A stretch of DNA of 63,359 bases, counting the filler, from Reclinomonas americana ATCC 50394 (Eukaryota): assembly GCA_048213135.1 (NCBI GenBank). It is 5 parts of 3 records of this genome, joined end to end, with 100 filler letters (N's around TTAATTAATTAA, not from the genome) between each part and the next. Parts side by side here need not be neighbours in the genome. Positions count along the whole stretch, not along the records: positions 57,733 to 63,359 come from PS015026.1; 4 more parts are not named here. One strand, 5' to 3'. The notes below the pieces were generated by a model. That model was given only the letters and a program-made list of their open reading frames with translations. It ran no database searches and was not told the origin of the DNA. The number at the start of each line of letters is the position of its first letter. Positions within the stretch are counted from its first letter, which is position 1. The translations under genes were made by a program, and so were the position numbers. Positions 22,216 to 63,359 of this stretch are shown in pieces.

Positions 22216-22315
22216 NNNNNNNNNNNNNNNNNNNNNNNNNNNNNNNNNNNNNNNNNNNNTTAATTAATTAANNNNNNNNNNNNNNNNNNNNNNNNNNNNN
22301 NNNNNNNNNNNNNNN
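22216..22315. other. Artificial scaffold-joining linker
   Basis: 44 N + TTAATTAATTAA (stops in all six frames) + 44 N, identical at four places in the window. Confidence 0.97.
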
Positions 22316-35069: not shown

Positions 35070-38000
35070 ATGGTAAGTGTATCTGCTCTCTCTCTCGCGC
35101 GCGCGCGCGCTCTCTGTCTCTCTGTGTGTTGCTCATAGGCCGTTGTTGTGTGCTGCACAGAGTGGTGCCAATGGACACGGTGGTGGTGGTGGTGGTGACA
35201 GTGACGAGGAGCTGCCGTTCACTCATGTACTGTCACAAGACGAGTTTGCGCAGCTGCGACGCTCGCGTGAACAGTATGGTGTGGGTGGCAGTGGAATGGT
35301 AGGCGCCGGCTCCAGTGGATCGGGCGGTGCAGGCGGTGGAGGAGGCGCGGGGCGAGGACCTCAGGCATGTCACACTCTCTGACTCGCTCACCCACAAACT
35401 GCTCATGTGACTGACACATGACTTGTGCAGCGCCCGTCATCGCAACGACCGGCACACTTGCGTCTGCGCAGCTCACTGCGCAGTGCCGTTCCGCAGGTGT
35501 GTGTGTGTGTGCTCTCTCTCGTTGACTCGCACTCCACTCGCTCACTCACTCACTCCGCAGCGACCGACGACTCCGGGCACTGCTGCTGCTGGTGCACCAC
35601 GTGCGCCAACCTCGCCAACCTCTGCGGCGGCGGCGGCGGCGGAGAGTGCAGCGGCGGCGAGTATGGCGGCCGCGCCGGTCAAGCCGGCCGTGACTCAGGT
35701 GCGTCCGTCGGGCTTCTTCTCGGATCCGCTCAACGAGGCGGTGCCGCCATCGCGTGGCTCCAAGGTGGCCACGTCGGGCGACTACCGGTCTACGGTGCAA
35801 CCGTTGCCGTCTGGTGCGTCTTGTCGACTGTTTTCCGTTTCTTTTTTTGTGTAGTGTCTGACCGCGTGTTGTGACTGTTTAGCCGGTGCGATTCCGGAGG
35901 GTGCGCTGGTCACCCCGGATCCGCAATTCACTCGCGAGACGTTGGATGCTGGTCGCATCACAGGCGTCGATGTCAAGGTCATGGTGCCGTACGATACTGC
36001 ACCCGGTCAAGGTACTGCAGTGTGGTGAAAACCTTGCCCTGTTTCCTTGCTGTATCTCATTGTATCTGGGTGGTGACAGTACCCCGCGCGGTGGAAGTCG
36101 AGCGCAAGCGTCGTCTGTATGCGAGCGTGAATGTTGGTGAGGAGCTGGCAATGCGCGGCTACGACTACCTGGAGCCGGGCGTGCTCGGTGGCCCCGACTC
36201 GGAACACCCGCCACCCGGCGGTGTGGGAGCCTCGTATCTCCCACTCGAGGTGTTCGACAATGAGGACTTTGATCCGCGACCACCAGGCCAATGGCAGCAG
36301 CTGATGCAACTGGTGCGCATCTCTACATTGCCGCTTCTCTTCTCTGGCCCCGCGTCTCTTAACCGTCTCTTCCCTTGCATCACGAAGGACGCCGATGGAG
36401 TGCGTTGCATCCCGTGCATGGCTGTGCGGCTTCTCCCCGGCGGCACTGGCGAGTGGGTGGACGGCAAGATGATTGAGTACAATGGTGAGGAGGACCGCTA
36501 CAAGGTCAGGGAGGTACAGACTGGCGAGGAATGGTGGCTGCCGCGTATCCACGTGTGCTTCAAGGTCGAGGACCCGTACCAGTTTGTGGAGCGTGTGATT
36601 GCCGCCCACAAGTACCGCCAGGAGACCGAGGCTGTGCTGGTACGGCGCGCATCTCACTCACCCCCGCTACTTGTCTCTATCGCTGCTCACTGCTTGTTTC
36701 TCTTCTCCTGTGCGTAGCGCTACAATCTCTTTATCGATTCAATGCCGGTGGACGAGATTCCGCCATTGTCGCAGCAGCAGCTGGAGCGCATTCTGAACCT
36801 GTCGCTGAATGCCACACTGCGCGAGCACCAGCAGGAGCTGAGCATTGCGGACCTGCTGAAGGAAATCAATCTCGAGTATTTCCGCACGGCGAACAAGCTG
36901 ATCTTTGACGAAGGCTTGCAAGATCCGGCGCAGGCCGACGTCTTCAAGGCTCTCGTGCTGCCGGAGCCGCAACTGCAGCCACCGCCGCCAGAGTTCCGTC
37001 CTCTACCATTATCTCTCCATCTCTCTTCCTTGCCCCCTCACTCATTCGTGATCGATGGACGTGCAGGTTCGGTCTCATGCCCATGCCCGAGTTCGATCTC
37101 ATCACTCAAGTCCGCAACTTCCACTTTGCCACCTTCCTCAACGCACCGCAAGTCATCATGTCGAACAACTTCGTGATGAAGGAGTGCGAGGAGCTGCACA
37201 AGATGAAGCTGTTCTGGGTCACGCTGACCAAGACCATGCGTCTGGACGAGTTTGAGCAGATTCAGATTCAGAACATTAACCAACTCCGCACATTCCTGCG
37301 CGAAGTGTTGCGTGCCCCATTCTGCGATCTCGACTCGACCTTGTTTCCTTCGTTTTCACTCACCATCGTTTTTGCGGGCGCAGTTGGGTGCACAACCTGA
37401 AAAAGGTGATTGTGCAATCGCTGAAGGAGGTCGGCAAGGGCTGGCTCAACCTGCGCGAGCGCCGTCGCGAAATCTACGAGATGAGCAAGCTGCGCAAGTA
37501 CATGCAGCAGATCAAGTTTGTCATGCAGGATCAACTGCGTTTCTTCACCGAAAAGTTGCGTCTCTGTGGTGTCGCATGTCCACAGTTTGCGACCATGCTT
37601 ATTCATCTCTCCTTCTCTTTTTGCGTGTGCAGTGCGCTGCGCGAGTACGTCGAGTTCATCGAGTACCAGTGCCGCCTCGAGGTGGAGGTTCGCAACTCCG
37701 GCAACGTGGTGGTGGTGGACCCGGAGATTCTGCGCAAGGCCAAGCTCGGTCTCGTGGAGATTGTCGACTACCGCCACGCCAATGGCAGCATCGACAACGA
37801 ATTCGTTGCGTATCTTATTGCAAACAATGCACCGTGATCCGACGCGGAGGTCTTACTTGTAGTTGTTGTTGTTGTGCACACACACGCGCAGCGCATTCCC
37901 ATGTTCTCGGTGGACTTGATGGAGCGCGAGGGCGAGTTGACGTACTCGACGACCCCCGAACGCTTCCGCGAGGTGCTGCTCGGCGTGTTCCAGCGCGGCC

Positions 38001-41000
38001 TCGACGNNNNNNNNNNNNNNNNNNNNNNNNNNNNNNNNNNNNNNNNNNNNNNNNNNNNNNNNNNNNNNNNNNNNNNNNNNNNNNNNNNNNNNNNNNNNNN
38101 NNNNNNNNNNNNNNNNNNNNNNNNNNNNNNNNNNNNNNNNNNNNNNNNNNNNNNNNNNNNNNNNNNNNNNNNNNNNNNNNNNNNNNNNNNNNNNNNNNNN
38201 NNNNNNNNNNNNNNNNNNNNNNNNNNNNNNNNNNNNNNNNNNNNTCCTGCCAGTGACGATCACGCATACCGGGGCTGCGCAGACTCGTAATGAGCGGCAG
38301 CTGCGGCTTGAACTCCACCACCTGGTTGTAAATCGTCTCGGCGATCGAAGCCAGCTCGTGCTGGCCCGAGTTCTTGAACTGACGAGCTGCACTCGTGGAA
38401 ACCCGATAGCTCGTGAGAAAGAAAGGTGTGCAAGAGAGAAGCGACTGGCTGCGACGCAACTCTGCTTGAACATGACACCATTGACGGTGTTGACGTTCTT
38501 CTCAATCAGTTCCGCGTCCAGCTCCACAAACGGATCATTGTCCCATGAGTAGCGCCACTTGAGCCAGTCATCCGCATTGGTCCACAGGAGGTAGAACGGC
38601 TCAAATTCCTTGACGGTGCCGGCCAGCTTCTGGTACTCGGTCTGCTCCTCGCCAAACAGCACCTCGCGGCTGTTGAACTCCTTGGCACGAGCCTCGCAGT
38701 CGGCCAGATCACGGCGAATGTGCTTGACCTCAGCCGCCACTTCTTGCACCTTGTCGAGATCCGTGTGACGGTTGAAGCGACTGACTTGCGCAGACAGACG
38801 ATCCACGTCCTTGTCGAACACGTGCTTCTCCTGCTCCATGCTCTCGCGGAAGTTGTCTTGCGCCGTGTCCAGGCTCTTCGAGGTCTGCTCCATCAGTATC
38901 TCAATCTGGCGAGGCCAGAACACCGCCGACCACATGCTCTTGAAGTCGTCGTCGGCAATCGGGCACTCCAAATTCTCCAGCATGTCAAAGTACTGGCGCA
39001 TCTCACGNNNNNNNNNNNNNNNNNNNNGATTTCGGAGCAGATTGGCTTTGAGGTGTATCCTGGACGACAGATCAAGACACTACAGGTGCGTGCATGTGAT
39101 CCATCGTCGTCGTCGTCTGCTACGTGCTGCGATCTAACGCTTGAGATATGGTGTGTACAGGATGTCCATCGCCTCAAACTCACCAACTACCTCGACTCGA
39201 TCAACGCTGTGGCCGAGAAGGCCAACAAGGAGTACAACTTGGAGGTGGCGCTTTCCGGCATGCAGTCCGACTGGGCCCCCATCGAGTTCGACGTGGTGCC
39301 TCACAAGTTGCGTGTTGCTTGTTGTTGTCACTCGTCGTTGACATGCTCGCGAGTGCTGACCGCGTGCGTGTGTGTGCCACCAAATCAGGGACAGCGGCAC
39401 GTTCATTCTGCGCGGTCTCGACGACGTGTGGCAGATGCTCGACGACCACATTGTCAAGACGCAGTCAATGGGCTTCTCGCCATACAAGAAGCCGCATGAG
39501 GAGGGCATTACGAAGTGGGACAAGACGCTGAACCGCATCTCCGACATTCTCGACGAGTGGGTCAAGTTCCAGCAGGGCTGGATGCAGAACGAGCCCATTT
39601 TCAGCTCCGACGACATTATGGAGCAGCTGCCGAACGAAGGCAAGAAGTTCCGCGCCATCAACCGCCAGTGGCGCAAGACCATGGACGCCGTCAAGGCGAC
39701 TCCCAATGTGGTGGCCTTTTGCGAAGCCCACCCGCGTCTGCTGGACACCTTCAAGGAGTGCAATGCCACCATTGATGAGATCCAGAAGGGTGAGTCGCGA
39801 CTGAGGGCAAGGGGGGAGGTGTGTGTGGGAAGAATGCGATTTTGCTCACTGCTCCATCAGGACTCAACGAGTACTTGGAGAAGAAGCGTCAGGCCTTTGG
39901 TCGTTTCTATTTCCTCAGCGACGGCGAGTTGCTGGAAATTCTGTCGCAGACTCGCGAACCGCGTGCCGTGCAAAAGTACCTGCGCAAGTGCTTCGAGGCC
40001 ATTTTCTCGCTCGAGTTCGAAAAGGACAACAAGATGACCAAGATGTTCAGGTGTGTTGTGTTGTGTTGTGTTTTCTTGCACTCCCGTGCTGCTCGTGTAA
40101 TAACCGCGACTCGTTCTCTCAGTGGCGAGGGTGAGATGGTTCCGTTCTCACGTGGCATCTACCCGGAGGGCAATGTGGAGCAGTGGCTGTGTGTCGTGGA
40201 GACGGTGATGAAGGAGAGTGTCAATGAGCAAATTCGACTCTCTCTGGAGGACTATCGCATCACTCCGCGTAATGTGCGTTCTCTTGTGTGCGTGTGTCTG
40301 TTGTTGCTCCAGCCTGACACGTGCGCCCTGTTTTCGCAGCAATGGGTGCTGAAATGGCCGGGCCAAGTGGTGCTTGTCGGCTCGCAGACGTACTGGACCT
40401 CCGAAGTGGAGGAGACGCTCAATTCGGGCAAGGATCTCGCCGGCTACTTCAAGCAGTGCCAGGACCAGCTGATTGATCTCACGGCTGTCGTCCGAGGACC
40501 AATGACCAAGTTGCAGCGCATTGCCATGGGTGCCCTCATCACCATTGATGTGCACGCCCGTGATGTGGTCAAGCAGATGGTCGCCGAAAAGGTGTGTGTG
40601 TGTGTGTGTTGCTGCTGTGGGCCGCGTGTTTAGTGTGCGCCTGGCTCACGCACACGCGCGGCATTAGGTGACAAGCACAGCCGATTTCGAGTGGAGCTCG
40701 CAGCTGCGCTACTACTGGAGGGAGAAGGATCTGTACATTCAGCAGGTCGAGGCCAAGTTCATCTACGGCTACGAGTACCTCGGCAACACCATGCGCCTTG
40801 TGATTACGCCGCTGACCGATCGCATCTACCTCACCCTCACTGGTGCCCTGCATTTGCACCTCGGTGGCGCTCCTGCCGGCCCTGCCGGTACTGGCAAGGT
40901 ACGGAACGACGAGTTTCCTCGCTGAACAATGGGGAGACGGAAACTCACCGATTTTTTTGTTGGTTCTGCAGACGGAGACGACCAAGGATTTGGCCAAGGC

Positions 41001-44000
41001 CATGGCCAAGCAGTGTGTCGTGTTCAACTGCCAGGAAGGCCTGGACTATCTGGCCATGGAGAAGTTCTTCAAGGGACTGGCTATGGCTGGTGCATGGGCT
41101 TGCTTCGACGAGTTCAACCGTATCGACGTCGAAGTGCTGTCTGTCGTCGCTCAGCAAATCACCGAGTTGCAGCGTGCCATCTCTCTCGGACTGGCGCAGA
41201 TTCAGTTCGGCTCGTCGATCATTCGTGTCGATCCCTCGTTTGCCGTGTTCATCACCATGAACCCCGGTTACGCTGGCCGGTATGTGATGTTTGGCCTGTC
41301 GTAGAGTTCGCTGCCGAATACCATTGACTCATTTGCCCCCTGCAGTACCGAGCTGCCCGACAACCTGAAGGCGCTGTTCCGCCCCGTCGCGTGCATGGTG
41401 CCCGATTACGCTCTGATTGCCGAAATCCGTCTGTTCTCGTTCGGTTTCGTCGACGCCTACCGCCTGGCACGTAAGATGGTCGCCACTTTCCGCCTCTCGT
41501 CCGAGCAGCTGTCCAGTCAGGATCACTACGATTTCGGCATGCGCGCTGTGACGACTGTCATCAACGCCGCCGGTCTGCTCAAGCGTGATGATCCGAACGG
41601 TGAGTCGCGAGGAGGGGGTATTTATCTGTTGGTCAGTGTGCTGATTTTTTACGACAGGCAATGAGGAGCTGCTGCTGCTTCGTGCGCTGCGCGATTCCAA
41701 CTTGCCCAAGTTCCTCACCGACGATATCACCCTGTTCAACGGTATCATTAGCGATTTGTTCCCGGGTGTCAACTTCCCAGAGCCCGACTACGAGAACCTG
41801 CTGCGCGGCATCAACAATGCGCTGGTGCACTTCAACCTGCAACCGGTGCCTGGTTTCATTGAGAAGACGCTGCAGTTATACGAGATGACAGTGTTGCGCC
41901 ACGGCCTCATGCTTGTCGGTCCAACCGGTTCTGGCAAGACCATGTGCTACAAGGTCCTGCAGCGGTGAGTGGAGAGATACTGCTGCGACATCCCCGCGAA
42001 TCATACTGGAGACGATCCACTCACTCTACCGTTATGTTGTTGTGCAGTGCCTTGACGGAGCTGTGCGATTTGCCGCGCTACGAAAAGGTCAAGACCTTTA
42101 TCCTCAATCCCAAGTCCATCACCATGGACCAGCTGTATGGTGGCTCCGACCCCATGACGCACGAGTGGACCGATGGCATTATTGCAGTGTTGCGTACAGT
42201 AGTTTACTGGTGGTGCCTGTGACTTCTTTCATCTATGATGCTTAAAACCACACTCGCCATCAGGCTGTTCCGCAAGGCCGTGCGTGACGATTCGCCCGAC
42301 AAGAAGTGGATCATTTTCGACGGACCTGTCGACGCGCTGTGGATCGAGTCGATGAACACGGTGCTGGACGACAACAAGAAGCTGTGCTTGGTCAGTGGTG
42401 AAATCATTTCGCTGTCGCCCGAAATGACCATCATGTTCGAGGTGGAGGACTTGGCCGTCGCCAGTCCTGGTGAGTGACGCCTTCCCCTTGTCTATATCTT
42501 TGGCGCTGGTTGTTGCTAACCTCTTGTGTGTGTGCGCGCGCGCAGCTACGGTGTCTCGCTGCGGTATGGTGTACCTGGAGCCCATCATGTGTGTCGGCAC
42601 TCAGGCGCAAGTGACGTCGTGGCTCAACACACTGCCGGAGGTCCTCAAGCCCTTCCGCCAGCAGCTGCAGGAGCTCTTCGACTACTACATGGACGACGCG
42701 CTCACGTTTGTGCGCCGTAACTGCTCCGAGTACATTCCGTCGGTGCCCAACAACCGCACGGCCTCGGTGTTCCGCCTGCTGGATTGCTTCTTCGACAAGG
42801 TTTGTGAGATTTGTTGGCTGCTGCTGCGCGTTGGGTGGGTTCGTGCGCCTCAAAATCTGTTTTTTCTTTTCTGCCAGTTTATCGAGCGAGAAGGCGTGCC
42901 GCGCCCGCAGGCTCTGATTGACCAGCTCGCGCGCATGGTGGAGCCGCTGTTCTTGTTCTCGCTGGTGTGGGGCGCTGGCGGTTCGGTCGATGGCAAGTCG
43001 CGCACCATGTTCAATGAGTACATGCGCGGTCGCATGCGCTCCAAGGGCGTGCGTATGCCGATTCCAGAGGCCAAGAGCGTGTACGACTGGCTCTTTGTGG
43101 AGGACACGTGTGAGTGGAAGGCGTGGATGGAGACTGAGCCTGCGTTGCGTCACTTGTCAAGGAAGAGAAGTGTTGTGTGGCGAGGGTTTTGCTGATTAAT
43201 GGTTGCCTGTGCAGATTTGTGCTCGACCCGAAGACCCCGTTCCAAGACATTATCGTGCCCACCACCGACACCATCCGCTACAAGTGGCTGCTGCAGCACC
43301 TGTGCACTCATGGCAAGCACATGATTGCCATTGGTCCGACCGGTACCGGCAAGACCTTGACGCTGCAGGTGTGTTTGCTGGAAATACACGTTTATGTTTG
43401 TACCATGCATGCGCGCTGACTGGCTTGGCTTGTGTTCGTGCAGGACAAACTGATGAGGGGCATGCCGGAGAGCTTTGTGCCGATCTTTATCAGTTTCTCT
43501 GCGCAGACGTCTGCCAACCAGACGCAGGACATTCTCGACGGCAAGTTCGAGAAGCGCCGCAAGGGTGAGTTTGCATGCAGTGGGGCGCGAACCATCTCCT
43601 GCGCCTGGCACTCACGTGTGTGTGCTCTTTCCCTTTCGCAGGCGTGTTTGGCCCGCTGCCGGGTCAGAACTTCACCATCTTTGTCGACGACTTGAACATG
43701 CCTGCTCGTCAGCAATACGGTGCGCAGCCGCCCATTGAGCTCATCCGCCAGTGGCTCGACCACGGTGGCTGGTACGATCGCAAGTTCCCCGACGATACGC
43801 CTTTCATGCGCATCATCGACGTCAACTGGGTCGGCACTCTCGGACCGCCTGGTGGCGGTCGTAACCCGGTCACCAACCGTATGCTGCGCCACTTTAACTT
43901 TATCACCTTCCCGGAGATGAGCGACGAGTCCATGACGACTGTGTTTAGCACCATTCTCGGTGCGTGATGCGGGAAGAGCGCAAAAGAGAGAGAGAGAGAG

Positions 44001-47000
44001 ACACTCATTCCTCGTTGTGTAGGCACGTACCTTTCGGCCTACTTCCCGCCTGAGCTCGGAGCCATGTGCAAGAACATTGTCGAAGCTGCCGTCACGCTGT
44101 ACAACACCATTGTGGAGGAGTTGCTGCCGACGCCGTCCAAGTCGCACTACACGTTCAACTTGCGTGATCTGGCCAAGGTATGTTCCTAAAGACGATGGTG
44201 TTATGAGTCGCGCAAGACGGCCGCTAATATCTCTCACTCCAGGTGTTCCAAGGCGTGCTGATGGGCGACCCGAAGACAGTGGGCGACAAGAAGGCCTTGC
44301 TGCGCCTGTGGGTGCACGAGTCGCAGCGTGTGTTCCGCGATCGTCTGGTCGACAACATCGATCGCAAGTGGTTCGACGATCAGACCGAGAAGCGGTGCGT
44401 GTGCTTTCGTTCCCCCCCCCCTGAACTCCGCGTGATGGTCGTATTCATTTCGTGTGTCTGTATGTTGTTGCGGCTGTGCAGTCTTCGCAGCTACTTCAAT
44501 CTGGGATACAGCGATCTGGGTGCCGCCGAGCGCCTGCTGTTTGGTGACTTTATGGTGCCGGGTGCCGATCCGCGCATCTACGTGGAAATCAGCGACCTCC
44601 ATCACTTGAAGTCGGTTCGTTGTCTGTGGACCACCCAGAGGGTGTACGTGTGTGCGTGCACGACCTCATCCACGCCCGCAGGTGCAAGAAGAGTACATGG
44701 AAATGTACAACGCCGTCAACTCGAAGAAGCCACTGACCCTGGTGCTCTTCTTGGACGCCATTGAGCACGTCGCGCGTATCTCGCGTGTGTTGCGCCAGCC
44801 GGCCGGCAATGCCCTCCTGCTTGGTGTGGGTGGCTCTGGTCGTCAGTCGCTGACGGCACTCGCTGCGTTCATGTCGGACTACAAGGTGTTCCAGATCGAG
44901 GTGAGTGTGTGTTGACACGAGAGGAGAGAGAGAGACCGTGGTGGCGCTGAATGGTTTCGTTTCCGCAGATTACCAAGAGCTACAGTGTCGCCGATTGGCA
45001 CGAGAACATGAAGACACTGCTGAAGGCCGCCGGTTGCGAAGGCCAGCAGATGGTGTTCCTGTTCTCCGACACGCAGATTGTGTACGAGTCGTTCCTCGAG
45101 GACATTAACGGCATTCTCAACTCTGGTGAGGTGCCGAACCTGTGGGAGGTCGCCGATCTGGAGGAGATTTACGGCGCCATGCGTCAGATTCTTGCCGCCG
45201 CCAACGAGCCGGTGCGTTGACGTGCTTACTCACTCGCTGCGCGCATTTGCTGTGCACCATACTGACTGACTGTGTGCGTGTGTGGGGGTGCAGATTTCCA
45301 AGATCAGCATGATGGCACGCTTCAACAAGCGTGTGAAGCAGAATCTGCACATTGTGCTGGCCATGAGCCCTGTCGGCGAGGCCTTCCGCAACCGTCTGCG
45401 TATGTTCCCGTCGCTGGTCAACTGCTGCACCATTGACTGGTTCTCGGCGTGGCCCGATGAGGCTCTGCGGTCGGTCGCCGTTGCGCAGCTTGGCGACGTG
45501 CGCCTGGACGACTCGCTCAAGCACAACATTGGCGAGATGTGTGTGAACATTCACCAGAGTGTCGAGGAGATCAGTGTCAAGTTCTTGGCCATTCTGCGCC
45601 GCCACAACTACGTGACGCCGACCTCGTATCTGGAGCTGCTGTCGACCTTCAAGACGCAACTGGCGACGCAGTCGGATGCTCTCGGCAAGCAGAAGCGCCG
45701 CTTCACCGTTGGTCTCGACAAGCTGATGTCGACCGAGGTGCAAGTCAATGACTTGAAGGTGTGTCGCGAAATCAAAGTCCCTGATTGCCCTGCATGATAC
45801 TCAAACGATGATGTGTGTGTGCTGCGCAGGATGATCTCGTGCGCATGCAGCCGAAGCTTATCGAGACGCAGAAGCAAGTCGACGAGCTGATGGTGCAAAT
45901 CGCTCACGATACCGAGGAAGCGAGTTGCGTCGATGTGCGCAGCTTGTCGGTGACAAGAGTATGGACTGATGAGAACATTGTTTCTACGCAGAGGCCACCC
46001 AGGAAATTGTGCTGAAGGATGAAGCCGAAGCCACGGCCAAGAAGGAGGAATGCGAGAGCATCAAGGCATCTGCCGAGGCCGAGCTGTCCGTCGGTGCGTA
46101 CTCTTGTTGATCGGTAGTCGCCATGTTACGCTGTTGATGTATTTGTATGCTGACCTGTTTCCTTTGTGCGTAGCCTTGCCGGCTCTCGAAAAGGCGCTGG
46201 TGTCGCTGAAGGATCTGAAGGTCAATGATATTACTGAGGTCGCCAACTACACCATCCCGCCGGCACTTGTGAAGACAACGCTGGAAGCCGTGTGTATCAT
46301 GAAGAAGGTGCCGCCGAAGATGGTCGGCGAAGTCGGTAAGAAGGTGGCCGACTACTGGGACAATGCCAAGGAAATGCTGAAGAAGGCCAACTTGGTGGGT
46401 GGCGTGTGCCTCTGTTTTTTTCCTCACGCTGCTGCTGTTTTTTGCTCATATACGTATGTGTGCGAGCAGCTGCGTGACGAAATGATCAACTTTGACCGCG
46501 ACAACATCCCCGAGGCCATCATCGTCAAGGTGCAACCGTACATCGACAACCCACAGTTCGTGCCCGACCAAGTCGCCAAGAGCTCCAAGGCCTGCACGGC
46601 CATGTGCGCCTGGGTGCATGCCATGTACAACTACCACCACACCAACAAGAAGTTGCGTTTGTCTGACACACAATGGGGGTGTTGGCATAAGCAGGCACTC
46701 ATGACGTGTGTGCGTGTGTGCAGGATCGAACCGCTGCGTGAGGCTCTGGCCAAGGCGCAGGCCGAGCTCGACATTGTGATGGCCAGTTTGGCCAAGACCA
46801 AGGCCAAGCTGACCGATGTGGAGAACAAGCTTGTCGATCTGCAGCTGCAGTACGACGAGAACGTGGCCAAGAAGGAGGAGCTGGAGCACCAAGTCGAGAT
46901 GTGCACCAAGAAACTGGACCGCGCCGAGCGTCTGATTGGTGGTCTCGGCGGTGAGAAGACTCGTTGGCAGGAGCAAGTGGTGCGCTTGGCGATTGCCGAG

Positions 47001-49190
47001 GCCAACATTGTCGGTGACGTCGTGTTGGCCTCTGGTGCCATTGCGTACGCCGGTCCGTTCACGGCCGTGTACCGTGCCGAGCTGTACCAGCAGTGGCGCT
47101 CCAAGTTGGCAGAATTGGGGTACGTTGTCGCCAGCGTCTTTGCAAGTGGCATGTCCGTTTGTGTCTGATCGTGTGTGTGTGTGTGNNNNNNNNNNNNNNN
47201 NNNNNNNNNNNNNNNNNNNNNNNNNNNNNNNNNNNNNNNNNNNNNNNNNNNNNNNNNNNNNNNNNNNNNNNNNNNNNNNNNNNNNNNNNNNNNNNNNNNN
47301 NNNNNNNNNNNNNNNNNNNNNNNNNNNNNNNNNNNNNNNNNNNNNNNNNNNNNNNNNNNNNNNNNNNNNNNNNNNNNNNNNNNNNNNNNNNNNNNNNNNN
47401 NNNNNNNNNNNNNNNNNNNNNNNNNNNNNNNNNNNNNNNNNNNNNNNNNNNNNNNNNNNNNNNNNNNNNNNNNNNNNNNNNNNNNNNNNNNCATTAACAG
47501 CATTCAATGCGACCCCAACGGCGATGTGCGCGCGACACTCGGTGACCCCGTGCAGATTCGTGAGTGGTCCATCTCCGGTCTGCCGTCGGATTCGCTGTCT
47601 ATCGAGAATGCCATTATCTTGTCCAAGGCTCGCCGCTGGCCGCTGATGATTGGTGAGTGGTTGTGGTGGTGGTGCGAGCAACTGAAGGGAATACGTGTGC
47701 TCATTTTTCGACTCGCACAGATCCGCAAGGACAGGCGAACAAGTGGATCAAGAAGATGGAGGGTGAGAAGGGATTGGAGGTTCTGAAGCTGAGCGACAAG
47801 GATTACCTGCGCACGCTGGAGAATGCCATCCAGTTCGGTCGCCCTGTGCTGCTGGAGAACATTGGCGAAGAGATTGATCCGGCTCTCGAACCCGTGCTGC
47901 AGAAGCAGGTATGTTTNNNNNNNNNNNNNNNNNNNNNNNNNNNNNNNNNNNNNNNNNNNNNNNNNNNNNNNNNNNNNNNNNNNNNNNNNNNNNNNNNNNN
48001 NNNNNNNNNNNNNNNNNNNNNNNNNNNNNNNNNNNNNNNNNNNNNNNNNNNNNNNNNNNNNNNNNNNNNNNNNNNNNNNNNNNNNNNNNNNNNNNNNNNN
48101 NNNNNNNNNNNNNNNNNNNNNNNNNNNNNNNNNNNNNNNNNNNNNNNNNNNNNNNNNNNNNNNNNNNNNNNNNNNNNNNNNNNNNNNNNNNNNNNNNNNN
48201 NNNNNNNNNNNNNNNNNNNNNNNNNNNNNNNNNNNNNNNNNNNNNNNNNNNNNNNNNNNNNNNNNNNNNNNNNNNNNNNNNNNNNNNNNNNNNNNNNNNN
48301 NNNNNNNNNNNNNNNNNNNNNNNNNNNNNNNNNNNNNNNNNNNNNNNNNNNNNNNNNNNNNNNNNNNNNNNNNNNNNNNNNNNNNNNNNNNNNNNNNNNN
48401 NNNNNNNNNNNNNNNNNNNNNNNNNNNNNNNNNNNNNNNNNNNNNNNNNNNNNNNNNNNNNNNNNNNNNNNNNNNNNNNNNNNNNNNNNNNNNNNNNNNN
48501 NNNNNNNNNNNNNNNNNNNNNNNNNNNNNNNNNNNNNNNNNNNNNNNNNNNNNNNNNNNNNNNNNNNNNNNNNNNNNNNNNNNNNNNNNNNNNNNNNNNN
48601 NNNNNNNNNNNNNNNNNNNNNNNNNNNNNNNNNNNNNNNNNNNNNNNNNNNNNNNNNNNNNNNNNNNNNNNNNNNNNNNNNNNNNNNNNNNNNNNNNNNN
48701 NNNNNNNNNNNNNNNNNNNNNNNNNNNNNNNNNNNNNNNNNNNNNNNNNNNNNNNNNNNNNGGAGCATGTGTGCACGCGTGTGTGGTGCTCGGTACTTAA
48801 TCCATTGTGCTCGCAGGTGTTCAAGAAGGGCACGTCGCTGATGATCAAGCTCGGTGAGAACGACATTCCGTACAACACCGACTTCCGGCTCTACGTCACC
48901 ACCAAGCTCCGCAATCCGCACTACTCGCCCGAAATCTCCGTCAAGGTCACCCTGCTCAACTTCTTCATCACCACCGATGGTTTGGAGGATCAGTTGCTGG
49001 GCGTGCTGGTCGCCAAGGAGAAGCCGGATCTGGAGCGGCTGAAGAACGAGCTGGTCGTTGAAAACGCGCGCTCGCGCAACAAGCTGCAGGCCATTGAGGA
49101 CCTCATTCTCAAGATGCTCAGTGAGAGTGGAGAAGACATTCTGGAGGAGGAGGATCTCATCAACACGCTCGCCCAATCCAAGGTCACCTC
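35070..49190 (+). CDS. DNAH1: Axonemal inner-arm dynein heavy chain, DNAH1-type; about 42 visible introns, internal gaps, cut after AAA5 by a linker
   Basis: N-terminal [26 protein letters not shown] and [14 protein letters not shown]...[11 protein letters not shown]-loops [24 protein letters not shown] and GVGGSGRQS, then stalk and [19 protein letters not shown]. Confidence 0.93.
38245..39007 (-). CDS. DNAH1: Dynein tail exons on a mis-oriented contig
   Basis: [15 protein letters not shown]...FEPFYLLW...[12 protein letters not shown]. When flipped, it joins 39028 in frame (CAG GA|G ATT TCG = Q E I S). Confidence 0.93.
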
Positions 49191-50349: not shown

Positions 50350-53696
<3,347 letters not shown>

Positions 53697-55230: not shown

Positions 55231-57632
55231 ATGACACGCGCTGCGCTGATGCTCTGCGCGCTGTTGGTGCTGCTGGCCGTGTGTGGTGCGTGATCTCGCC
55301 CCTTCACCTCTCCCTCTCCCTCTCCCTCACCCACCACTCACTTTTGTGTGCAAACGCGCAGGCCTGGCAGCAGCCAAGCACGGTGAGGGCCACGAGCAAG
55401 CCGAGCGTGACCCCGCCACTCACGCTCTCGCCGTCAAGTACGGCTTCAACCCGCCCGTGGTGGGCGGCACCACCTCCACCACGCCGGTGAACGAGGCCGC
55501 TGCCACACCCACCGAGGCACTCCCGCAGGTCCAGGTGGACCCCATTCCAGAGTTGCGCGCGCACGCGAGAAACAATGAGAATGCCACGTGTGATTATCGC
55601 TGACTTTTCTTGATTGTTCTACACAAGGGCGCCGCTTCCTCACCCGCCGGTCTTCCGTGTGCCGCCGACGCCGACTGGCTCGTTTGTGCACCCGACCCCG
55701 GCGCCGCGTCAGGCGGTGAATCCGTCGACGGAGGAGGCGCCGGTGGAGTTTGAGGTGGTTGTCGTCGAGGAGATTGATGTGCCGCCGCCGCCGCCGCCGC
55801 CGCAGCCAATGCGCGGTGCTCGCCCGTGCAGTGGCCATGGTGGCTTCTGGTCGCGCATCTTTGGTGGTCGCCACGCGCCACCACCGCCGCCGCCGGGTGA
55901 CATGGAGACGCAGGAGGCTGGTGACGACAACCATCATCACCACCACCACCACCATCACGGCCATGGTGACGGTGAGCGCCGCCACGGCCACCACCACCAC
56001 CACCACCACCACGAGCATGCCGAGAAGTACGACGCTGCTGGCGTGCCTGTGGAGGGTGGCGATGAGAACCAGCACCACCACCATGGACGCCACGGTCNNN
56101 NNNNNNNNNNNNNNNNNAAAGTGGGAAGGAGTGAGAACAAACCATCGGACAGCGCGCGCCAGCGGCGGCAGCAGCGGCCAGTGCCACGCGGGCGACGGCA
56201 GATGCGGCACAGCGCAAGCAGCACAATCAGCGTGTGCGGGATGAGCACGCAGCCGAGGACGGTGAGGATGGTGCGCGTGTTCGGCGTCATGCTCAGCGGA
56301 ATGCGCGACGGGTACGGCGACTGCGAGTAGGCACCGGCGTAGCCCGAGGCGGCGGCGCCCGCAAAGCTCTCCTGCGGCGGAGCACCCGGAGCGTAGCCCG
56401 GCATCTCCTGCTGACCACCGTGGTGGTGGTGGTTGTGGTTGTGGTGGTGACGATCGCCGCCACCAAACATGTTCTTCACCCACTTGCGGAAGCCACGGAA
56501 CATGCCGTGACNNNNNNNNNNNNNNNNNNNNNNNNNNNNNNNNNNNNNNNNNNNNNNNNNNNNNNNNNNNNNNNNNNNNNNNNNNNNNNNNNNNNNNNNN
56601 NNNNNNNNNNNNNNNNNNNNNNNNNNNNNNNNNNNNNNNNNNNNNNNNNNNNNNNNNNNNNNNNNNNNNNNNNNNNNNNNNNNNNNNNNNNNNNNNNNNN
56701 NNNNNNNNNNNNNNNNNNNNNNNNNNNNNNNNNNNNNNNNNNNNNNNNNNNNNNNNNNNNNNNNNNNNNNNNNNNNNNNNNNNNNNNNNNNNNNNNNNNN
56801 NNNNNNNNNNNNNNNNNNNNNNNNNNNNNNNNNNNNNNNNNNNNNNNNNNNNNNNNNNNNNNNNNNNNNNNNNNNNNNNNNNNNNNNNNNNNNNNNNNNN
56901 NNNNNNNNNNNNNNNNNNNNNNNNNNNNNNNNNNNNNNNNNNNNNNNNNNNNNNNNNNNNNNNNNNNNNNNNNNNNNNNNNNNNNNNNNNNNNNNNNNNN
57001 NNNNNNNNNNNNNNNNNGCTCATGTTTTTTTGTTGCTCACCTTGGTGACCGACAACAGAGGAGATTGGCAAGACGAGCCACTGCGTGGCTGGCTGCTGCG
57101 CCTCGAGCACCGCGTGCTTCTTTGGTGGTGCTCTGGCCCTCGTGCTGCTGCCGCTGTCGTGCTTGTTCCGCAGCCGCAAGGTCCGCCTCGGCGTCGGTGC
57201 CGGTCTGGCGATCTGCTCCCTGCTGTCGGCCACTGCCCTGTTGATCTTCGGCACCGTGGGCTCATACCACGATGAGGCGATGGTGAGTGAGAGAGCGAGG
57301 ATCAAAAAATTGTGTGTGTCGTCAGGCGAATCCGTGAACTCACTTTTTTTCGGTGATCAGCGCGTCATGTCGTCGTCGAACGAGCACGCTCTGGGCGGCA
57401 ACTGGACGGTCATCACCCTGGCCATTGGCATGCCGCTGTTCATTGTGGCCTCGTGGGCGCTGGTGGCCATCACCGCCTGCTACCGCCGCCTGCCGTGCCG
57501 CGGACAGAACGGCAACAACAACAATGGCGACGAGTCCATGTCGGACATGGAGTCCAACTGCCCGTCGAACCCCGCCGCCTATGTGCCGCTGCCGCAGGAC
57601 GACTCGGTCCAGCCGCTGCTGGCGCAGCCGGT
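55231..57632 (+). CDS. His-rich protein with signal peptide and about four C-terminal TM helices; middle exon 56143-56511 lies on an inverted contig; 3' end cut
   Basis: Signal MTRAALMLCALLVLLAVCG, Pro-rich and polyHis tracts. The flipped contig continues GRHGHGMFRGF; hydrophobic helices follow at 57059-57480. Confidence 0.72.
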
Positions 57633-57732: not shown

Positions 57733-60700
57733 GGCTGGTGTTGAGCGAGCCACACCTCGCGTGTCGGTGGATTCGGGGCGACGTGCGGCCGAGGCGCTGT
57801 TGCCGGCATCGTTTGTGGTACAGCCGCAGCAATTGCGTCCGCCGCAGCCCGTGGCCACCACCATTGGTGTGCCACACTTGTCGGGGGATGGCGGTCCGCG
57901 TCGGAGCGATGTGTATTCGTTGCCTGTGGCTCAGTTTGAAGACTTGCGGCTGGCCGCACGCGTCCTGTCACAGCAGCAACAACAACAAGAGATGCAACTA
58001 CAGCAGCATTTCCAACAGCAACTGCAGCAACATCAACAGCGGCAGGAGGAGGAGGAGGCGAAAAAGTCAGGAGTGCGGCGTCGATGCACCGCGAGACGTT
58101 TCTGGATAATCTTCTTGATTGTTGCTTGTATCCTCTTGCTGCTCGGCTCCGCGGCTGGAGTCTTGTATTTGTACCTGCGGCCAGAGACGGTGCCGCAGAA
58201 AGTCACCAGTGCGTTCTCCCTCGCGCCTCGTTTCCCCGTTCTCTGTTTACCGTTTATTCACTTTTGATTCTGCATGTGTGTCCTTCCCTCCCTCCCACCA
58301 GCTACTACCATTGTCGTTGGGTCGACATCGGGAAGCGTCACAACCACAGACGCCACACTCACAGTTCGTGGCGGTGTTGCCGCGTCGTCCGGAAAGTTCC
58401 GTTCTCTTGTCTTCCCTGTTTGTATTACCATGTTCGTACTCATTTTTTGCTCTTCGTGCGCGTGTGCAGCATATCGACGAACAACACGGACGTGGGCTAC
58501 CGCTTCTCATCAACATCAACAGGCATGTTTGCTGTCGGCGTACTCAATCTGGCATCGTCTGTAATCCCCGGCTCCGGTGATTCCCGCACCGTCTCCGAGC
58601 GTGTGTCGTCGTCGTCGTCGTCCTCCTCCTCCTCCCCGTCTGCAACAATGTGCAGCCCAACGGCAGCCAGCGACGGCCCGACTGCCCCGCCGACAACTCT
58701 AGGCAGTCCTAGTAGCAGCAATAGTCGTAATTATAGGAATCAGCCGCGGCAGGCGGCAACTGCCGCCCCGCAGTGCCAGTCGAGCGCCGGCGGCACCGCC
58801 TCGGCCAATGTCGACGTCCAGGCGCGCGATGTCGACACGGTGCGCAGCAGCACCTCGGATCTGGCGTTTTTGCACGACGCCAAACAAGTGTTGACGTTTA
58901 CGGCGCTCTCCGACTCGTTGGAGGCCGCACTTTTTGACGCCAAGTTGCGCCTTGCCGTGCCTTGTTAACTATATTTCCCTCCCAGTGTCTCAATTATCGT
59001 TCGTCGTACGCAGCGTGTACATTATGCAACGCAGTCTCTACCTGGGCCACGCGGCATCGGACTCAGCCACCCTGTCGGAACGCTACCGCGCCCGACGGCG
59101 TGTTTTGCAAGACGACTCGGGTGTTCTGCGCCTCAATCCGGACTCGGCGTACTCGTCGGTCACCATCGGACAGTCGACGTTGGTCGTCAATAATAGCACG
59201 CTGACTGTCGCCGGTACCGTCTATGCGCCGGGGTACCAGCTCTCCAGCGCACCCTCTGCGTCCGGCGTGTTCTACGCCAACTGTTGCGTCTCCGCTGCAC
59301 TTGATTGTATTGCCTTTTTTTCTTATCGCTGACAACTCTTGGACTTTTGTTAACGCTCAGCACAAGTTGTCATTGGCAATTCCGGCCAGAATCGCATCAA
59401 GGTACCGGCCTCCACCAAGGATCCTGTTGTTATCACGGGCCCTCTTGAAGTGGAGCAACCTATCTTTGTCGGCCTTGACGATGTCGGCAATCGGATCCTG
59501 AGTCTGACCAGTACCAAACTGACGGTGGGCGACAGGCAAACGACCACCGACGTGGAGTCGGTTGGCCGCCTGGCGGTAACGGGCCCGAGTATTGCCCTCA
59601 ACTTGCGCATGGCTCTCGTGTCGGGTGTGTCTGACTTGACGGTCGGAGTCGACACGGATGTGGTGAGAATACCGGGCATGCTGAGCGTCTCCAAGGCGTC
59701 CACCTTTGCGGCCGCCCTCACTGCACAATCCACATTGACGGTCACTGGAGCAACCACACTTCAAGGTGCCGTCACGGCATCCTCTTCAGTGACTGTGACC
59801 GGTACGCTTTCCGTGCAGGATGCGCTGACGGCACGCACACTGGCGGTCACTGGTGCCACGAATCTCGGCTCCACACTGTCGGTGTCCTCTGCCGTCACGC
59901 TCTCGTCGACATTGGCGGTGACCAGCGACGCCACATTATCGGGCGCGCTGATTGTCAACGGCGTGGTGCAGGCTCGGAGCTCGGTGGTAGTCACTGGCGA
60001 TACGACCATCGCCGGCACTCTGACCACCAACGGAGCGGCGGTCCTCAACGGCTCAGTGACACTGCCGAACGGCAGTGCGCTCACCGTCGGCACCGGCGGC
60101 GCAGTATTCAACGGCACCCTGCGCACCAACGGACAGACGACTCTGGCCGGCCCTGTGCAGATCAACAACGGCAGTCTGCTGACTGTCGGTACATCGGGAG
60201 CCACATTTGCTGGTCCGATCACGATGCAGGCCGGTCAGCTGCTGACTGTCGGCACCGGCGGCCTCACGCTCGGCGGCGCGCTGCAAGTCAATGCGGCATC
60301 GTCATTCAGCGGCTCTGTGGCCGTGACTGGCACAAATACGTTGACAGTCGGCACCGGAGCTGCGACATTCAATGGCCCACTGCGTGCCACGGCCACCTCC
60401 GTCACCACGCTCGACGGCACGCTGGCGGTCAATGGTGCCGCAACTTTCACCGGAGCCGTAAGCGTGACCGACACCGGTTCCTTCACCGTCGGTGTCGCTG
60501 GCATCGTCTCCAATGGACCAATCAGTGTGGCCAATGGTGTCACGCTCACTGTTCCGTATCTGCTTGTCGTTTGCTGTGCGCCCACTCACGTTCACCATAC
60601 TCATTCGTTTTTGCTTCGGTATGCAGGTGGGCACCGGAGTGACGACGCTTGGCGGCGAATTGCGTGTGAGGTGTGTGCATTTTCCTTGTGTCTCTGTGTG

Positions 60701-63359
60701 CGCGTGATATTCGTGGCTCATCTCCGCTCTTCTCCTTTCCTCGCCAAAACAGCGGTGTCACCACCTTGTCTGGTGCGCTGACCACGAACGGCACGGCGAC
60801 ATTTGCCAATTCGGTTACTCTCGGCAACGCAGCGTCGCTGACGGTGGGCACTTTGGGTGCGACCTTCAACGGCCCTGTAACGTTGTCGGCCGGTCAGCAA
60901 TTGACAGTCGGCTCTGGTGGCCTGACAGTGAACGGATCGCTGATCACCACGGGTTCATCGACCTTTGGTGGTGGCGTCACCTTCAACAACTCAGTCAGCG
61001 TCAACGGCAACATCACTGTCGCCGATGCAAAGCTGGTGACCATTGGTACGGGCGGCTTGCGCGTAACGGGCTCGGTTCAGGTGGACTCGAGCACAGCGCT
61101 CAACGGTTCAGTGACGATCGCCAACGGGCAGTCATTCACTGTCGGCAACGGTGCCAGCGCCATTCGCGGAACGCTTACCGTCGATGGTGCCACTACGTTT
61201 ACGACCACAGCCGTACACACTGGTGCCACCACCTTCAACGGCACTGTGACTGTTGCCGATGGCAAGTTGGTCACTATCGGCTCTGCGGGCATTGCGCTGA
61301 ATGGGCCACTCGCGCTGTCCGGCGCCAACACGCTGACACTGGCCACTGGGACGGCGACATTCGGGGGAGCTGCGACGTTTAGGTACGTCTGTGTGTTTGT
61401 GTACTCTGTGTTCGTTTCTCTCAGTCTGTCTGCTCACCTCCTCCTTCTTCTTCTTTACGCAACAGTGGTGCGACCACCGTCAACGGCCAGCTGACTGTCA
61501 ATGGCCAGTCGTCGTTTGCGAACAGCGTTGCGTTGACGGACGCCGCCAGTCTCACGGTGGGTGCGCTCGGTGCCACATTCAACGGCCCTGTGACTATCAG
61601 CGACACGCGCTTGCTGCGCGTTGGCACGGGTGGCGTTACAGTTGCTGGAGTGACGACGCTGAATGGCGCGCTCACCGTGGGCGCCGCCTCGCAGTTCAAC
61701 GCACCCATTGTGGTGTCCAACGGCAACGATGTGCGCGTGGGCACTGGTGGACTGGCTGTCACTGGTGCTATCAGTGCACAGTCGACGTTGAATGTCACCG
61801 GAGCGGCGACGCTGCAGTCTTCGCTTGCTGTCACTGGTGCTACGCAGCTCAATGGTGTACTGCAAGTTGGACAGGCCACCACACTCAACAGCACGTTGCT
61901 CGTTTCCGACACGGCCACCATCGGCGGCGCTGTCAACGTAAGCGGTCCCACAAACATGCTCGGTACCATGTACGCGCAGGGAGTTGCGCGCTTCGATGCC
62001 ACGTTGAACGCCAATGCTGCGGTGAATGTTGGTACGACACTGTCGGTCACCGGCAACACCTCAGTCTCCACGCTCGTAGCGTCCGGGCTGGTAACTGCTG
62101 GCAGTCTGACCACCGCCGGCACTATAAATGCGTTGGGTCTCATTATCGGTGGCAGTCTGTCGACCGCAGGCACGCTGTCTGCGACCGGTTCACTGACTGT
62201 CGGTAGCATCACGACGGGCGGCGCACTTGCGGCCACGGGCTTGGTGACTGGCGGCAGCTTCACGACCACCGGCAGCATCAGCGGCGCCACAATGAGCACT
62301 GCCGGTCTGGTTTCTGGTGGAAGCCTAGCTACTGCCGGTACAGCAACTGTCACGGGCACCATTACTGGTGGAAGCTTCACCACTGGTGGCACCATTGGCA
62401 CCGTCGGCGTCATCACGGGCGGGAGCGTCACCACGGCCGGCACATTGCAAGGTCGTACCATGAGTGCGTCGGGCGTGGTGGCCGGTGGCAGTCTGACCAC
62501 CGACGGCACGCTAACGGTGCTGGCCAACGCCACAGTCGGCACGCTCGTCAGTGGTGGTACTGTGAGTGCGGCAGGTGTCGTCAGTGGCGGCAGTGTGACC
62601 ACTGGTGGCACGCTGCTGGCGGCGCTGATGAGCGCGTCGGGGATGGTGAGCGGCGGCAGCCTCAGCAGCAACGGTACGCTGGTGGTTGGCAGCGGTGTGA
62701 CGGCCGGCAGTGTGACGACGGCCGGCACCATTGCGGCCACCAACAGTGTGACTGGCGGCTCGTTTGTGACTGGTGGCACCGTGTCGGCTGCGGGCCTGAT
62801 CACTGGTGGCAGTGTGACGACCGTCGGGTCACTGCAGAGCGGCTCGGTGAGCACGTCTGGCCTGGTGAGTGGTGGCAGCATTGCGACTGGCGGCACGGCG
62901 ACGGTGACGGGCGTGCTGATGGCCGGTAGTTTGACGACGGCCGGTACAATTGATGTGACTGGCGCGGCATCGGTGGGCAGCCTGGCGAGTGCGAGCTCGG
63001 TGAGCGCCGCCGGCCTGGTGACGGGCGGCGGCGGGTTCACGACGAGTGGCGCTGTAGTCGCTGGCGGTCTGGTGACGGCGGGCAACCTGACGACAGGCGG
63101 CACCGTGCAGGCAGCTGGTGTGATTACGGGCGGCAGTGTGACGACCGTCGGGTCGCTGCAGAGCGGTTCGATGAGCACGTCGGGCCTGGTGAGTGGCGGC
63201 AGCATTGCGACTGGCGGCACGGCGACGGTGACGGGCCTGATGACCGCCGGCAGTTTGACGACGGCTGGCACGATCGGCGCGACTGGCGCGGCATCGGTGG
63301 GCAGCCTGGCGAGTGCGAGTTCGGTGAGCGCCGCCGGCCTGGTGACGGGCGGCGGCGGG
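57733..63359 (+). CDS. Very large type II membrane protein with G/T/V/A/S-rich beta-repeat (fibre/adhesin-like) ectodomain; incomplete at both ends
   Basis: Q-rich N-terminus, then TM FWIIFLIVACILLLLGSAAGVLYLYL, then seven GT-AG introns linking one continuous frame. The last exon (from about 61466) stays open to the window end, so the ORF track misses it. Confidence 0.85.
62808..63359 (+). repeat. Near-identical coding duplication with a 324-bp (108-codon) period
   Basis: 62808-63035 aligns without gaps to 63132-63359, with scattered substitutions, many of them synonymous. Confidence 0.9.

Follow-up and report, generated by a model that had tools for sequence, protein, structure and literature searches.

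A predicted spliced gene of Reclinomonas americana for a membrane-anchored protein with a stalk of phage-fibre-like repeats

The DNA analysed here (the window; 63,359 nucleotides in five joined parts, filler included, from Reclinomonas americana ATCC 50394, assembly GCA_048213135.1) ends in a separate 5.6-kb assembly piece that begins after a spacer at 57733 and carries one large, incomplete gene, referred to below as the fibre gene. Its predicted product has a single transmembrane (TM) helix followed by a long stalk of beta-type repeats, part of which resembles the fibres of large tailed phages. The reading that we favour, at a probability of roughly 0.55, is that it is a host type II membrane protein forming a trimeric rod, with a stalk put together as a mosaic from a common pool of fibre modules, and that it acts as a surface fibre. 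To our knowledge, the molecular basis on which bacterivorous protists recognise and hold prey, like that of many of their hairs and coats, is largely unknown; a spliced, membrane-anchored host protein with a phage-fibre-homologous stalk would be a concrete candidate for a prey-holding or surface-coat molecule. If the reading is true, phage attachment hardware has been reused by a eukaryotic cell. A search of open-licence papers and bioRxiv yielded no report of a protist protein that combines introns in its gene, a membrane anchor and a likeness to phage fibres; each of the parts is of a known kind, and what would be new is to find them together in one membrane protein of a eukaryote. This particular gene copy is of limited value because the tip of the protein lies outside the window.

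Removal of seven predicted GT-AG introns of 70-93 nt each from the plus strand gives a stop-free frame of 1,690 codons, in line with an earlier note on this DNA, which had proposed an intron-containing eukaryotic gene. The gene is open at both ends, as the frame runs from the first codon after the assembly spacer and the 3' end leaves the window. Five of the seven introns shift the frame, while introns 1 and 4, the only ones with a length divisible by three, contain in-frame stops, and T makes up 36-46% of the introns and 18-21% of all eight exons. The gene model, with residues counted in amino acids (aa) of the translation, reads:

57734..58208, plus strand: exon 1, 5' end missing; Pro/Gln-rich, presumably cytosolic tail, basic cluster and TM helix (translation, hydropathy)
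about 58106-58162, plus strand: TM helix, aa 125-143, within exon 1 (hydropathy)
58209..58301, plus strand: intron 1, donor GTGCGT, in-frame stop
58302..58395, plus strand: exon 2, Thr/Val-rich juxtamembrane strands, aa 159-189, without Pfam match
58396..58469, plus strand: intron 2, shifted donor GTTCCGT
58470..58943, plus strand: exon 3, Ser/Pro-rich flexible linker and unique segment, aa 190-347; T content 0.20, exon-like
58944..59013, plus strand: intron 3, shifted donor GTTGCGC
59014..59282, plus strand: exon 4, unique segment, aa 348-437, relatives not found
59283..59360, plus strand: intron 4, shifted donor GTTGCGT, in-frame stop
59361..60550, plus strand: exon 5, beta segment of irregular pattern, then the first of two 12-mer blocks (aa about 545-670) and the start of the knee-motif block
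60551..60626, plus strand: intron 5, shifted donor GTTCCGT
60627..60670, plus strand: exon 6, 44 nt, knee motif carries on
60671..60752, plus strand: intron 6, donor GTGTGT
60753..61382, plus strand: exon 7, knee-motif repeats, aa 849-1058
61383..61465, plus strand: intron 7, donor GTACGT
61466..62066, plus strand: exon 8, first part, end of the knee motifs, then the second block of 12-mers (aa 1150-1260)
62067..63359, plus strand: exon 8, second part, block of GG[SN] units of 17 or 22 aa with relatives among the tail fibres of large phages; leaves the window

Exon 3 may hide a further in-frame intron. Donors of a shifted GTT[GC]CG kind open four of the seven introns (GTTCCGT twice, GTTGCGC and GTTGCGT), and the other three have unshifted donors (GTGCGT, GTGTGT and GTACGT). 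In the window as a whole GTTGCGT occurs 44 times against 12.4 expected, and shifted donors were also found in 7 of 40 introns called in a dynein heavy chain gene and a BEACH gene by a crude codon-based script, which gets the introns of the fibre gene wrong on account of that gene's composition and, in dynein, is no more than roughly correct. Since shifted donors are common to the fibre, dynein and BEACH genes and GTTGCGT is in excess in the window, the fibre gene is, with splicing as predicted from the DNA, a nuclear gene of the host, and the dynein heavy chain gene marks that host as a flagellated eukaryote. The earlier observation that the introns use the shifted donors of the host thus applies to four of the seven, and bacterial contamination is rejected, as it was there, because the gene has introns. 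GTTGCGT can be regarded as a second class of 5' splice site, one base off the usual GTGCGT, with examples at donors 37307, 37555, 37805, 39307, 42189 and 45924.

The predicted protein begins with a Gln/Pro-rich tail (Q = 18% of aa 1-120), and its top hydropathy window, at aa 125-143 (2.87), is the single strong TM helix in the sequenced part; both features had been recognised in the earlier note. Because the basic cluster KKSGVRRRCTARR sits on the N-terminal side of this helix, a type II topology is suggested for the protein, whose N-terminus is incomplete here, with the N-terminus inside and the C-terminal part outside. A Ser/Pro linker and segments without relatives (aa 150-545) lead to 1,146 residues (aa 545-1690) that contain 0 Cys, no Trp and 32 Asp, Glu, Lys or Arg (2.8%). 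The earlier description of more than 1,000 residues of beta-type repeats in three styles, nearly free of Cys and with few charges, is therefore accurate, and the 12-mers and 17-mers quoted there all occur in the translation. Autocorrelation peaks at 12 and 24 in aa 545-670 and 1150-1262 and at 17, 34 and 56 in aa 1262-1690, and period 12 is stronger than period 18. The third style, the knee motif of aa 670-1150, recurs at irregular spacings of 8 to 66 residues, often 21, 33 or 45. Among the 19 unit spacings of the 17-mer block, nine are of 17 aa and five of 22 aa, the 22-mer being a 17-mer unit with one extra strand. The abundance of Ser+Thr (30.8%) and Gly (18.5%) in the repeats, together with the genuine Ser/Pro linker in exon 3, might also be expected of a disordered, mucin-like Ser/Thr-rich glycoprotein, an alternative already raised in the earlier note. 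However, Pro amounts to only 0.2-1.4% in the repeats, hydrophobic residues alternate strictly, an ordered all-beta model is obtained at a predicted local distance difference test (pLDDT) score of 79.5 and shuffled queries lose every match, which together make a mucin very improbable.

The 17-mer block matches 147 proteins with a best E of 1.7e-65, and controls were run against the 120 of them that were listed (the metagenomic proteins P0178-P0297). Among these 120, the query scores 239 bits, whereas the reversed query scores 48 and 12 of 12 shuffles score 0. At least five copies of the 17-mer motif are present in 114 of the listed relatives, the top ones sharing 33-43% identity with the query across most of the block, and 20 contain the peptidase S74 domain (S74; PF13884). 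One relative led to 79 viral loci in IMG/VR (L001-L079); in L015, a 340-kb viral contig, the relative was assigned to a tail-fibre family, and among the genes close to it are those for tail sheath, virion structural and head-tail adaptor proteins. In large contractile-tailed phages, the fibres share with the present block the unit GxxTGG[NS]xxTxGTx, the 17-residue spacing and one-strand insertions, the latter seen in phage relatives as 23-mers in 198 of 1,750 spacings. They differ in having virion-type N-termini, no TM helix, no introns and a lower GC content at third codon positions (GC3), and a 12-mer block is found in 0 of the 120. Compared with an S74-type phage tail fibre, the repeat shaft thus appears homologous (by E-value, controls and viral context), while seven spliceosomal introns, a TM helix and a Q-rich tail take the place of the virion-attachment N-terminus. 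Viral contigs scanned directly for the 17-mer block gave 0 loci, and in cultured phage records neither repeat block had a match by tblastn with the low-complexity filter on. On these sequence comparisons we consider homology of the 17-mer block to phage fibres reasonably probable and a viral ancestry likely for this module, a conclusion that does not extend to the rest of the gene. The earlier idea of a domesticated, virus-derived gene suits this module more than the gene as a whole, which is a mosaic. The block resides in the host, as shown by its GC3 of 0.74, unlike that of three phage genes (0.24-0.38), and by a 324-nt stretch within the last 600 nt of the window that has recently been duplicated (87% DNA identity). 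As a side observation, big tailed phages have a large family of 17-mer repeat fibres (for instance L002:8001-12458 and L015:8001-11918), and these relatives carry automatic labels such as 'fibronectin-binding autotransporter adhesin' or 'filamentous hemagglutinin'; one of them, P0183, is without a Pfam match.

That the repeats form a beta-helical rod is highly probable from structural modelling. The AlphaFold monomer models are beta-solenoids, both for exon 5 alone (pLDDT 64) and for aa 1190-1519 modelled with 41 sequences (pLDDT 79.5), and the latter aligns with EtpA (Z 24.0, root-mean-square deviation 2.4, 325 residues aligned) and Vag8 (Z 21.5). Foldseek matched viral fibre-like models (best E 2.9e-8) and returned nothing from the PDB at E <= 0.001. 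Taken at face value, these models describe a product of the same gene, with the same anchor, in which each chain folds alone into a right-handed beta-solenoid of about 30 nm, like autotransporter or two-partner adhesins, and in which the extra strands are surface loops. The regularity of the models speaks for such a fold, as do their best matches (EtpA, Vag8 and pertactin, Z 16-24), the length of one coil, which equals 17 residues, and the monomeric solenoids as which prasinovirus repeat proteins were modelled according to excerpts of PMC12906663. However, a prediction run on one chain cannot reveal a trimer of intertwined chains. The monomer model has three loops of low confidence, which lie in 3 of the 3 covered 22-mers and in 0 of the 8 other units. 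The looped-out segments, which contain Met and are its sole low-confidence parts, keep the strand pattern. An extra strand would break the three-sided coil of a monomer and would be tolerated by a three-fold layered helix, and because the low-confidence loops coincide with the extra-strand 22-mers the trimer is favoured. Moreover, period 12 outweighs period 18, and many of the relatives have an S74 end. According to the consulted part of PMC8326128, the S74 chaperones serve to fold triple beta-helices that are trimeric, and the best PDB match of exon 5, a weak one (E 0.019), is the neck of TP901-1 BppL, described in passages of PMC3893620 as a beta-prism of three interlaced chains whose repeat is six residues long. 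All considered, a trimer is probable and the lone-chain solenoid rather unlikely; the sequenced repeats have a computed span of about 92 nm in the first case and 31 nm in the second.

The affinities of the remaining stalk are more diffuse. Exon 5 matched 39 proteins among 8,000 scored candidates, 18 of them with S74, and an exhaustive search gave 549 matches, 150 of which were listed; the top matches resemble giant-virus proteins. Since the reversed 12-mer query still scores 150 bits, compared with 208 for the forward one, the 12-mer match is largely a matter of periodicity, while the knee block finds its best match in P0088, a signal-peptide protein ending in S74, with 82 bits against 15 when reversed. 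The viral and bacterial 12-mer S74 fibres (P0004-P0035 and P0040-P0049; Gaeavirus and Pyramimonas virus in BFVD) resemble the present protein in their L-x-V-x-G-A-T-x-L units, a likeness that is partly periodic, and in a knee module like that of P0088, but are without an N-terminal membrane anchor. Because both 12-mer and 17-mer blocks, by our own motif definitions, occur together in 0 of 297 fetched proteins, the stalk is regarded as a mosaic. The two upstream segments that had been likened to tail-fibre motifs did not bear this out: exons 3 and 4 have no significant match in Pfam, PHROGs or the PDB, a pattern of the first motif is found in 0 of the 297 fetched proteins, and a homologue search of the protein collection with exon 4 retained 0 of 568 candidates at E <= 10. 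Profile A1 retrieved from the PDB designed armadillo repeats and other spurious matches alone, and ESM Atlas scores of 0.84 and 0.92 came with low recognition values and serve as leads only. Metagenomes scanned for the initial portion of exon 8 gave 11 loci, whose best segments reach 31-40% identity save for one 29-residue match at 69%, and none of the 11 has a TM-like window or represents the same gene. Bactofilin (PF04519) was rejected as a candidate family, as its 25.4 bits fall short of the cut-off of 27.9 and reflect a six-residue periodicity.

These matches also bear on whether the gene is a remnant of an endogenous virus, polinton-like or giant, rather than one encoding a functional host protein. 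Besides the giant-virus character of the top exon-5 matches, such an origin would suit the position of the fibre gene, alone on its contig piece with its flanks out of view, and long S74 fibres are common in polinton-like viruses of protist genomes (PMC12220804, in part). Yet the seven introns are of the host type, the frame is intact, GC3 is like that of the host and the protein joins a TM helix to a Q-rich tail, and a TM-like window (hydropathy at least 1.9) is seen in just 1 of the 120 listed 17-mer relatives. We therefore hold a viral remnant to be highly improbable. Windows of that hydropathy occur in 8 of 177 exon-5 matches, and the same layout is found in one of the eight, ANDGO_01802 of Andalucia godoyi. 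Another eukaryote-labelled match, P0041 of Tetraselmis striata, is without a TM helix. Tetraselmis striata has an endogenous giant virus.

Sarcoglycans have a type II orientation and are several times shorter than the present protein. The trimer of beta-, gamma- and delta-sarcoglycan, as far as the available text of PMC12750041 describes it, is a membrane-anchored extracellular beta-helix, resembling the trimer suggested here, and the single TM helix with the N-terminus inside is matched by the hydropathy and basic cluster of the present, incomplete N-terminus. This layout raises the alternative of a family of type II membrane proteins with a trimeric beta-helix that is old among eukaryotes, whose repeats converged on those of viral fibres or passed to them and whose role would be that of a structural coat, hair or spacer, with no viral acquisition. 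Seven introns suggest long residence, and a similar layout recurs in ANDGO_01802 (EukProt; P0131, 1,707 aa), a protein of a free-living jakobid with a Pro/Ser-rich low-complexity N-terminus, one TM helix at about aa 149 and a long stalk of beta repeats. However, P0131 has no 17-mers but G-x-V-G-I-G fibre knuckles, and its known C-terminus is without S74; because the similarity is just 26% and composition-like, it indicates shared design, not orthology. Furthermore, the repetitive present protein has no sarcoglycan match in Pfam or the PDB, searched with single exons, and the match of the 17-mers to phage fibres is direction-specific, so that we judge an old family unlikely. ANDGO_01802, in itself a complete jakobid type II protein with PHROG tail-fibre and baseplate matches, offers a tractable example, and a term search did not find it in the main text of the genome paper (PMC7050145).

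Other known systems share some features of the fibre gene. Where the earlier note had compared the repeats to phage and giant-virus fibres and bacterial adhesins, the phage part stands on the direction-specific 17-mer match, whereas the likeness to YadA-type trimeric autotransporters is weak: with six exons, the Pfam matches at E values of up to 1 include no YadA family, a single Atlas row (0.80) is a lead only, and these adhesins are anchored by a C-terminal beta-barrel, the anchor in the sequenced part here being an N-terminal helix. The best functional analogy is provided by the Bdellovibrio MAT fibres, which by the accessible portion of PMC10769870 are cell-encoded, phage-fibre-like mosaic trimers on the surface of the predator; these are bacterial and have their own N-terminal domain, unlike the eukaryotic TM N-terminus here, and an approximate MAT capping-loop pattern gave 0 matches in the present protein. 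The bodonins of Bodo saltans (PMC4728078, consulted in extracts) are multi-copy protist surface proteins with a Ser/Thr-rich, autotransporter-like ectodomain and a proposed role in attachment to prey or substrate; they have about seven TM helices after the ectodomain, the part of the present protein sequenced here, which stops short of the C-terminus, having one before the repeats, and the extracts report no relation to phage fibres. MYRF, by the same sections of PMC8326128, is a membrane protein of eukaryotes that makes use of parts of phage tailspikes (its ICA domain), but has a short stalk and is a transcription factor freed from the endoplasmic reticulum, whereas the long stalk here would lie on the far side of the membrane.

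Several observations weigh against the anchored trimeric fibre that we favour. The likeness of the 12-mers to viral and bacterial fibres is largely periodic, no S74 is annotated in 100 of the 120 listed 17-mer relatives, and the units of the query carry Ser where phage units mostly carry Asn. Simple repeats of Gly, Thr, Ser, Ala and Val are open to convergence and unsuited to tree building. Both monomer models are single-chain right-handed solenoids, and N-glycosylation sequons are not enriched (21 against 20.6 expected). With these points taken into account, the host nuclear gene would give rise to a type II protein with a cytosolic N-terminus, one helix and a long C-terminal part outside the cell or in a lumen. 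The repeat regions of three chains would intertwine as a triple beta-helix, forming a stiff, slender rod some 90 nm or more in length that keeps the putative C-terminal tip distant from the membrane, and folding would probably begin at the C-terminus, where S74 or a similar domain would bring about trimerisation. Modules of the stalk would have been drawn from a pool common to phage, giant-virus and bacterial fibres, and the 17-mer module would have continued duplicating inside the host. The likeliest use would be that of a surface fibre binding prey or substrate, followed by that of a structural hair or coat; by analogy with the Bdellovibrio MAT fibres and the bodonins, adhesion or prey binding is put forward as a tentative assignment. 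It is conceivable, if somewhat doubtful, that a phagotrophic protist took fibre modules from large bacteriophages and other viruses, fused them to an anchor and multiplied them into a set of surface fibres whose phage-type tips recognise bacterial prey. Such fibres would be a eukaryotic counterpart of those of Bdellovibrio and perhaps also occur in other free-living protists, for instance in jakobids.

Elsewhere in the window, the intron-rich dynein heavy chain gene lies at 35070-49190 (plus strand). Within it, between two gaps, 38245-39007 holds dynein-like sequence on the minus strand (weak DHC_N2 match, E 1.4e-4) and is probably a misoriented scaffold piece. The BEACH gene, which also has WD40 repeats and was recognised by eye from translations, occupies 50450-53696 (plus strand). 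At 55233-56097 (plus strand) there is a gene whose product has a signal peptide and tracts of poly-His and poly-Pro; 56118-56511 (minus strand), which follows after a gap of 20 N, is a His-rich piece with a hydrophobic end and perhaps its misoriented continuation. The spacers TTAATTAATTAA, with 44 N on either side, at 22260, 49235, 53833 and 57677 join unrelated assembly pieces, and neighbours across them are therefore unlinked.

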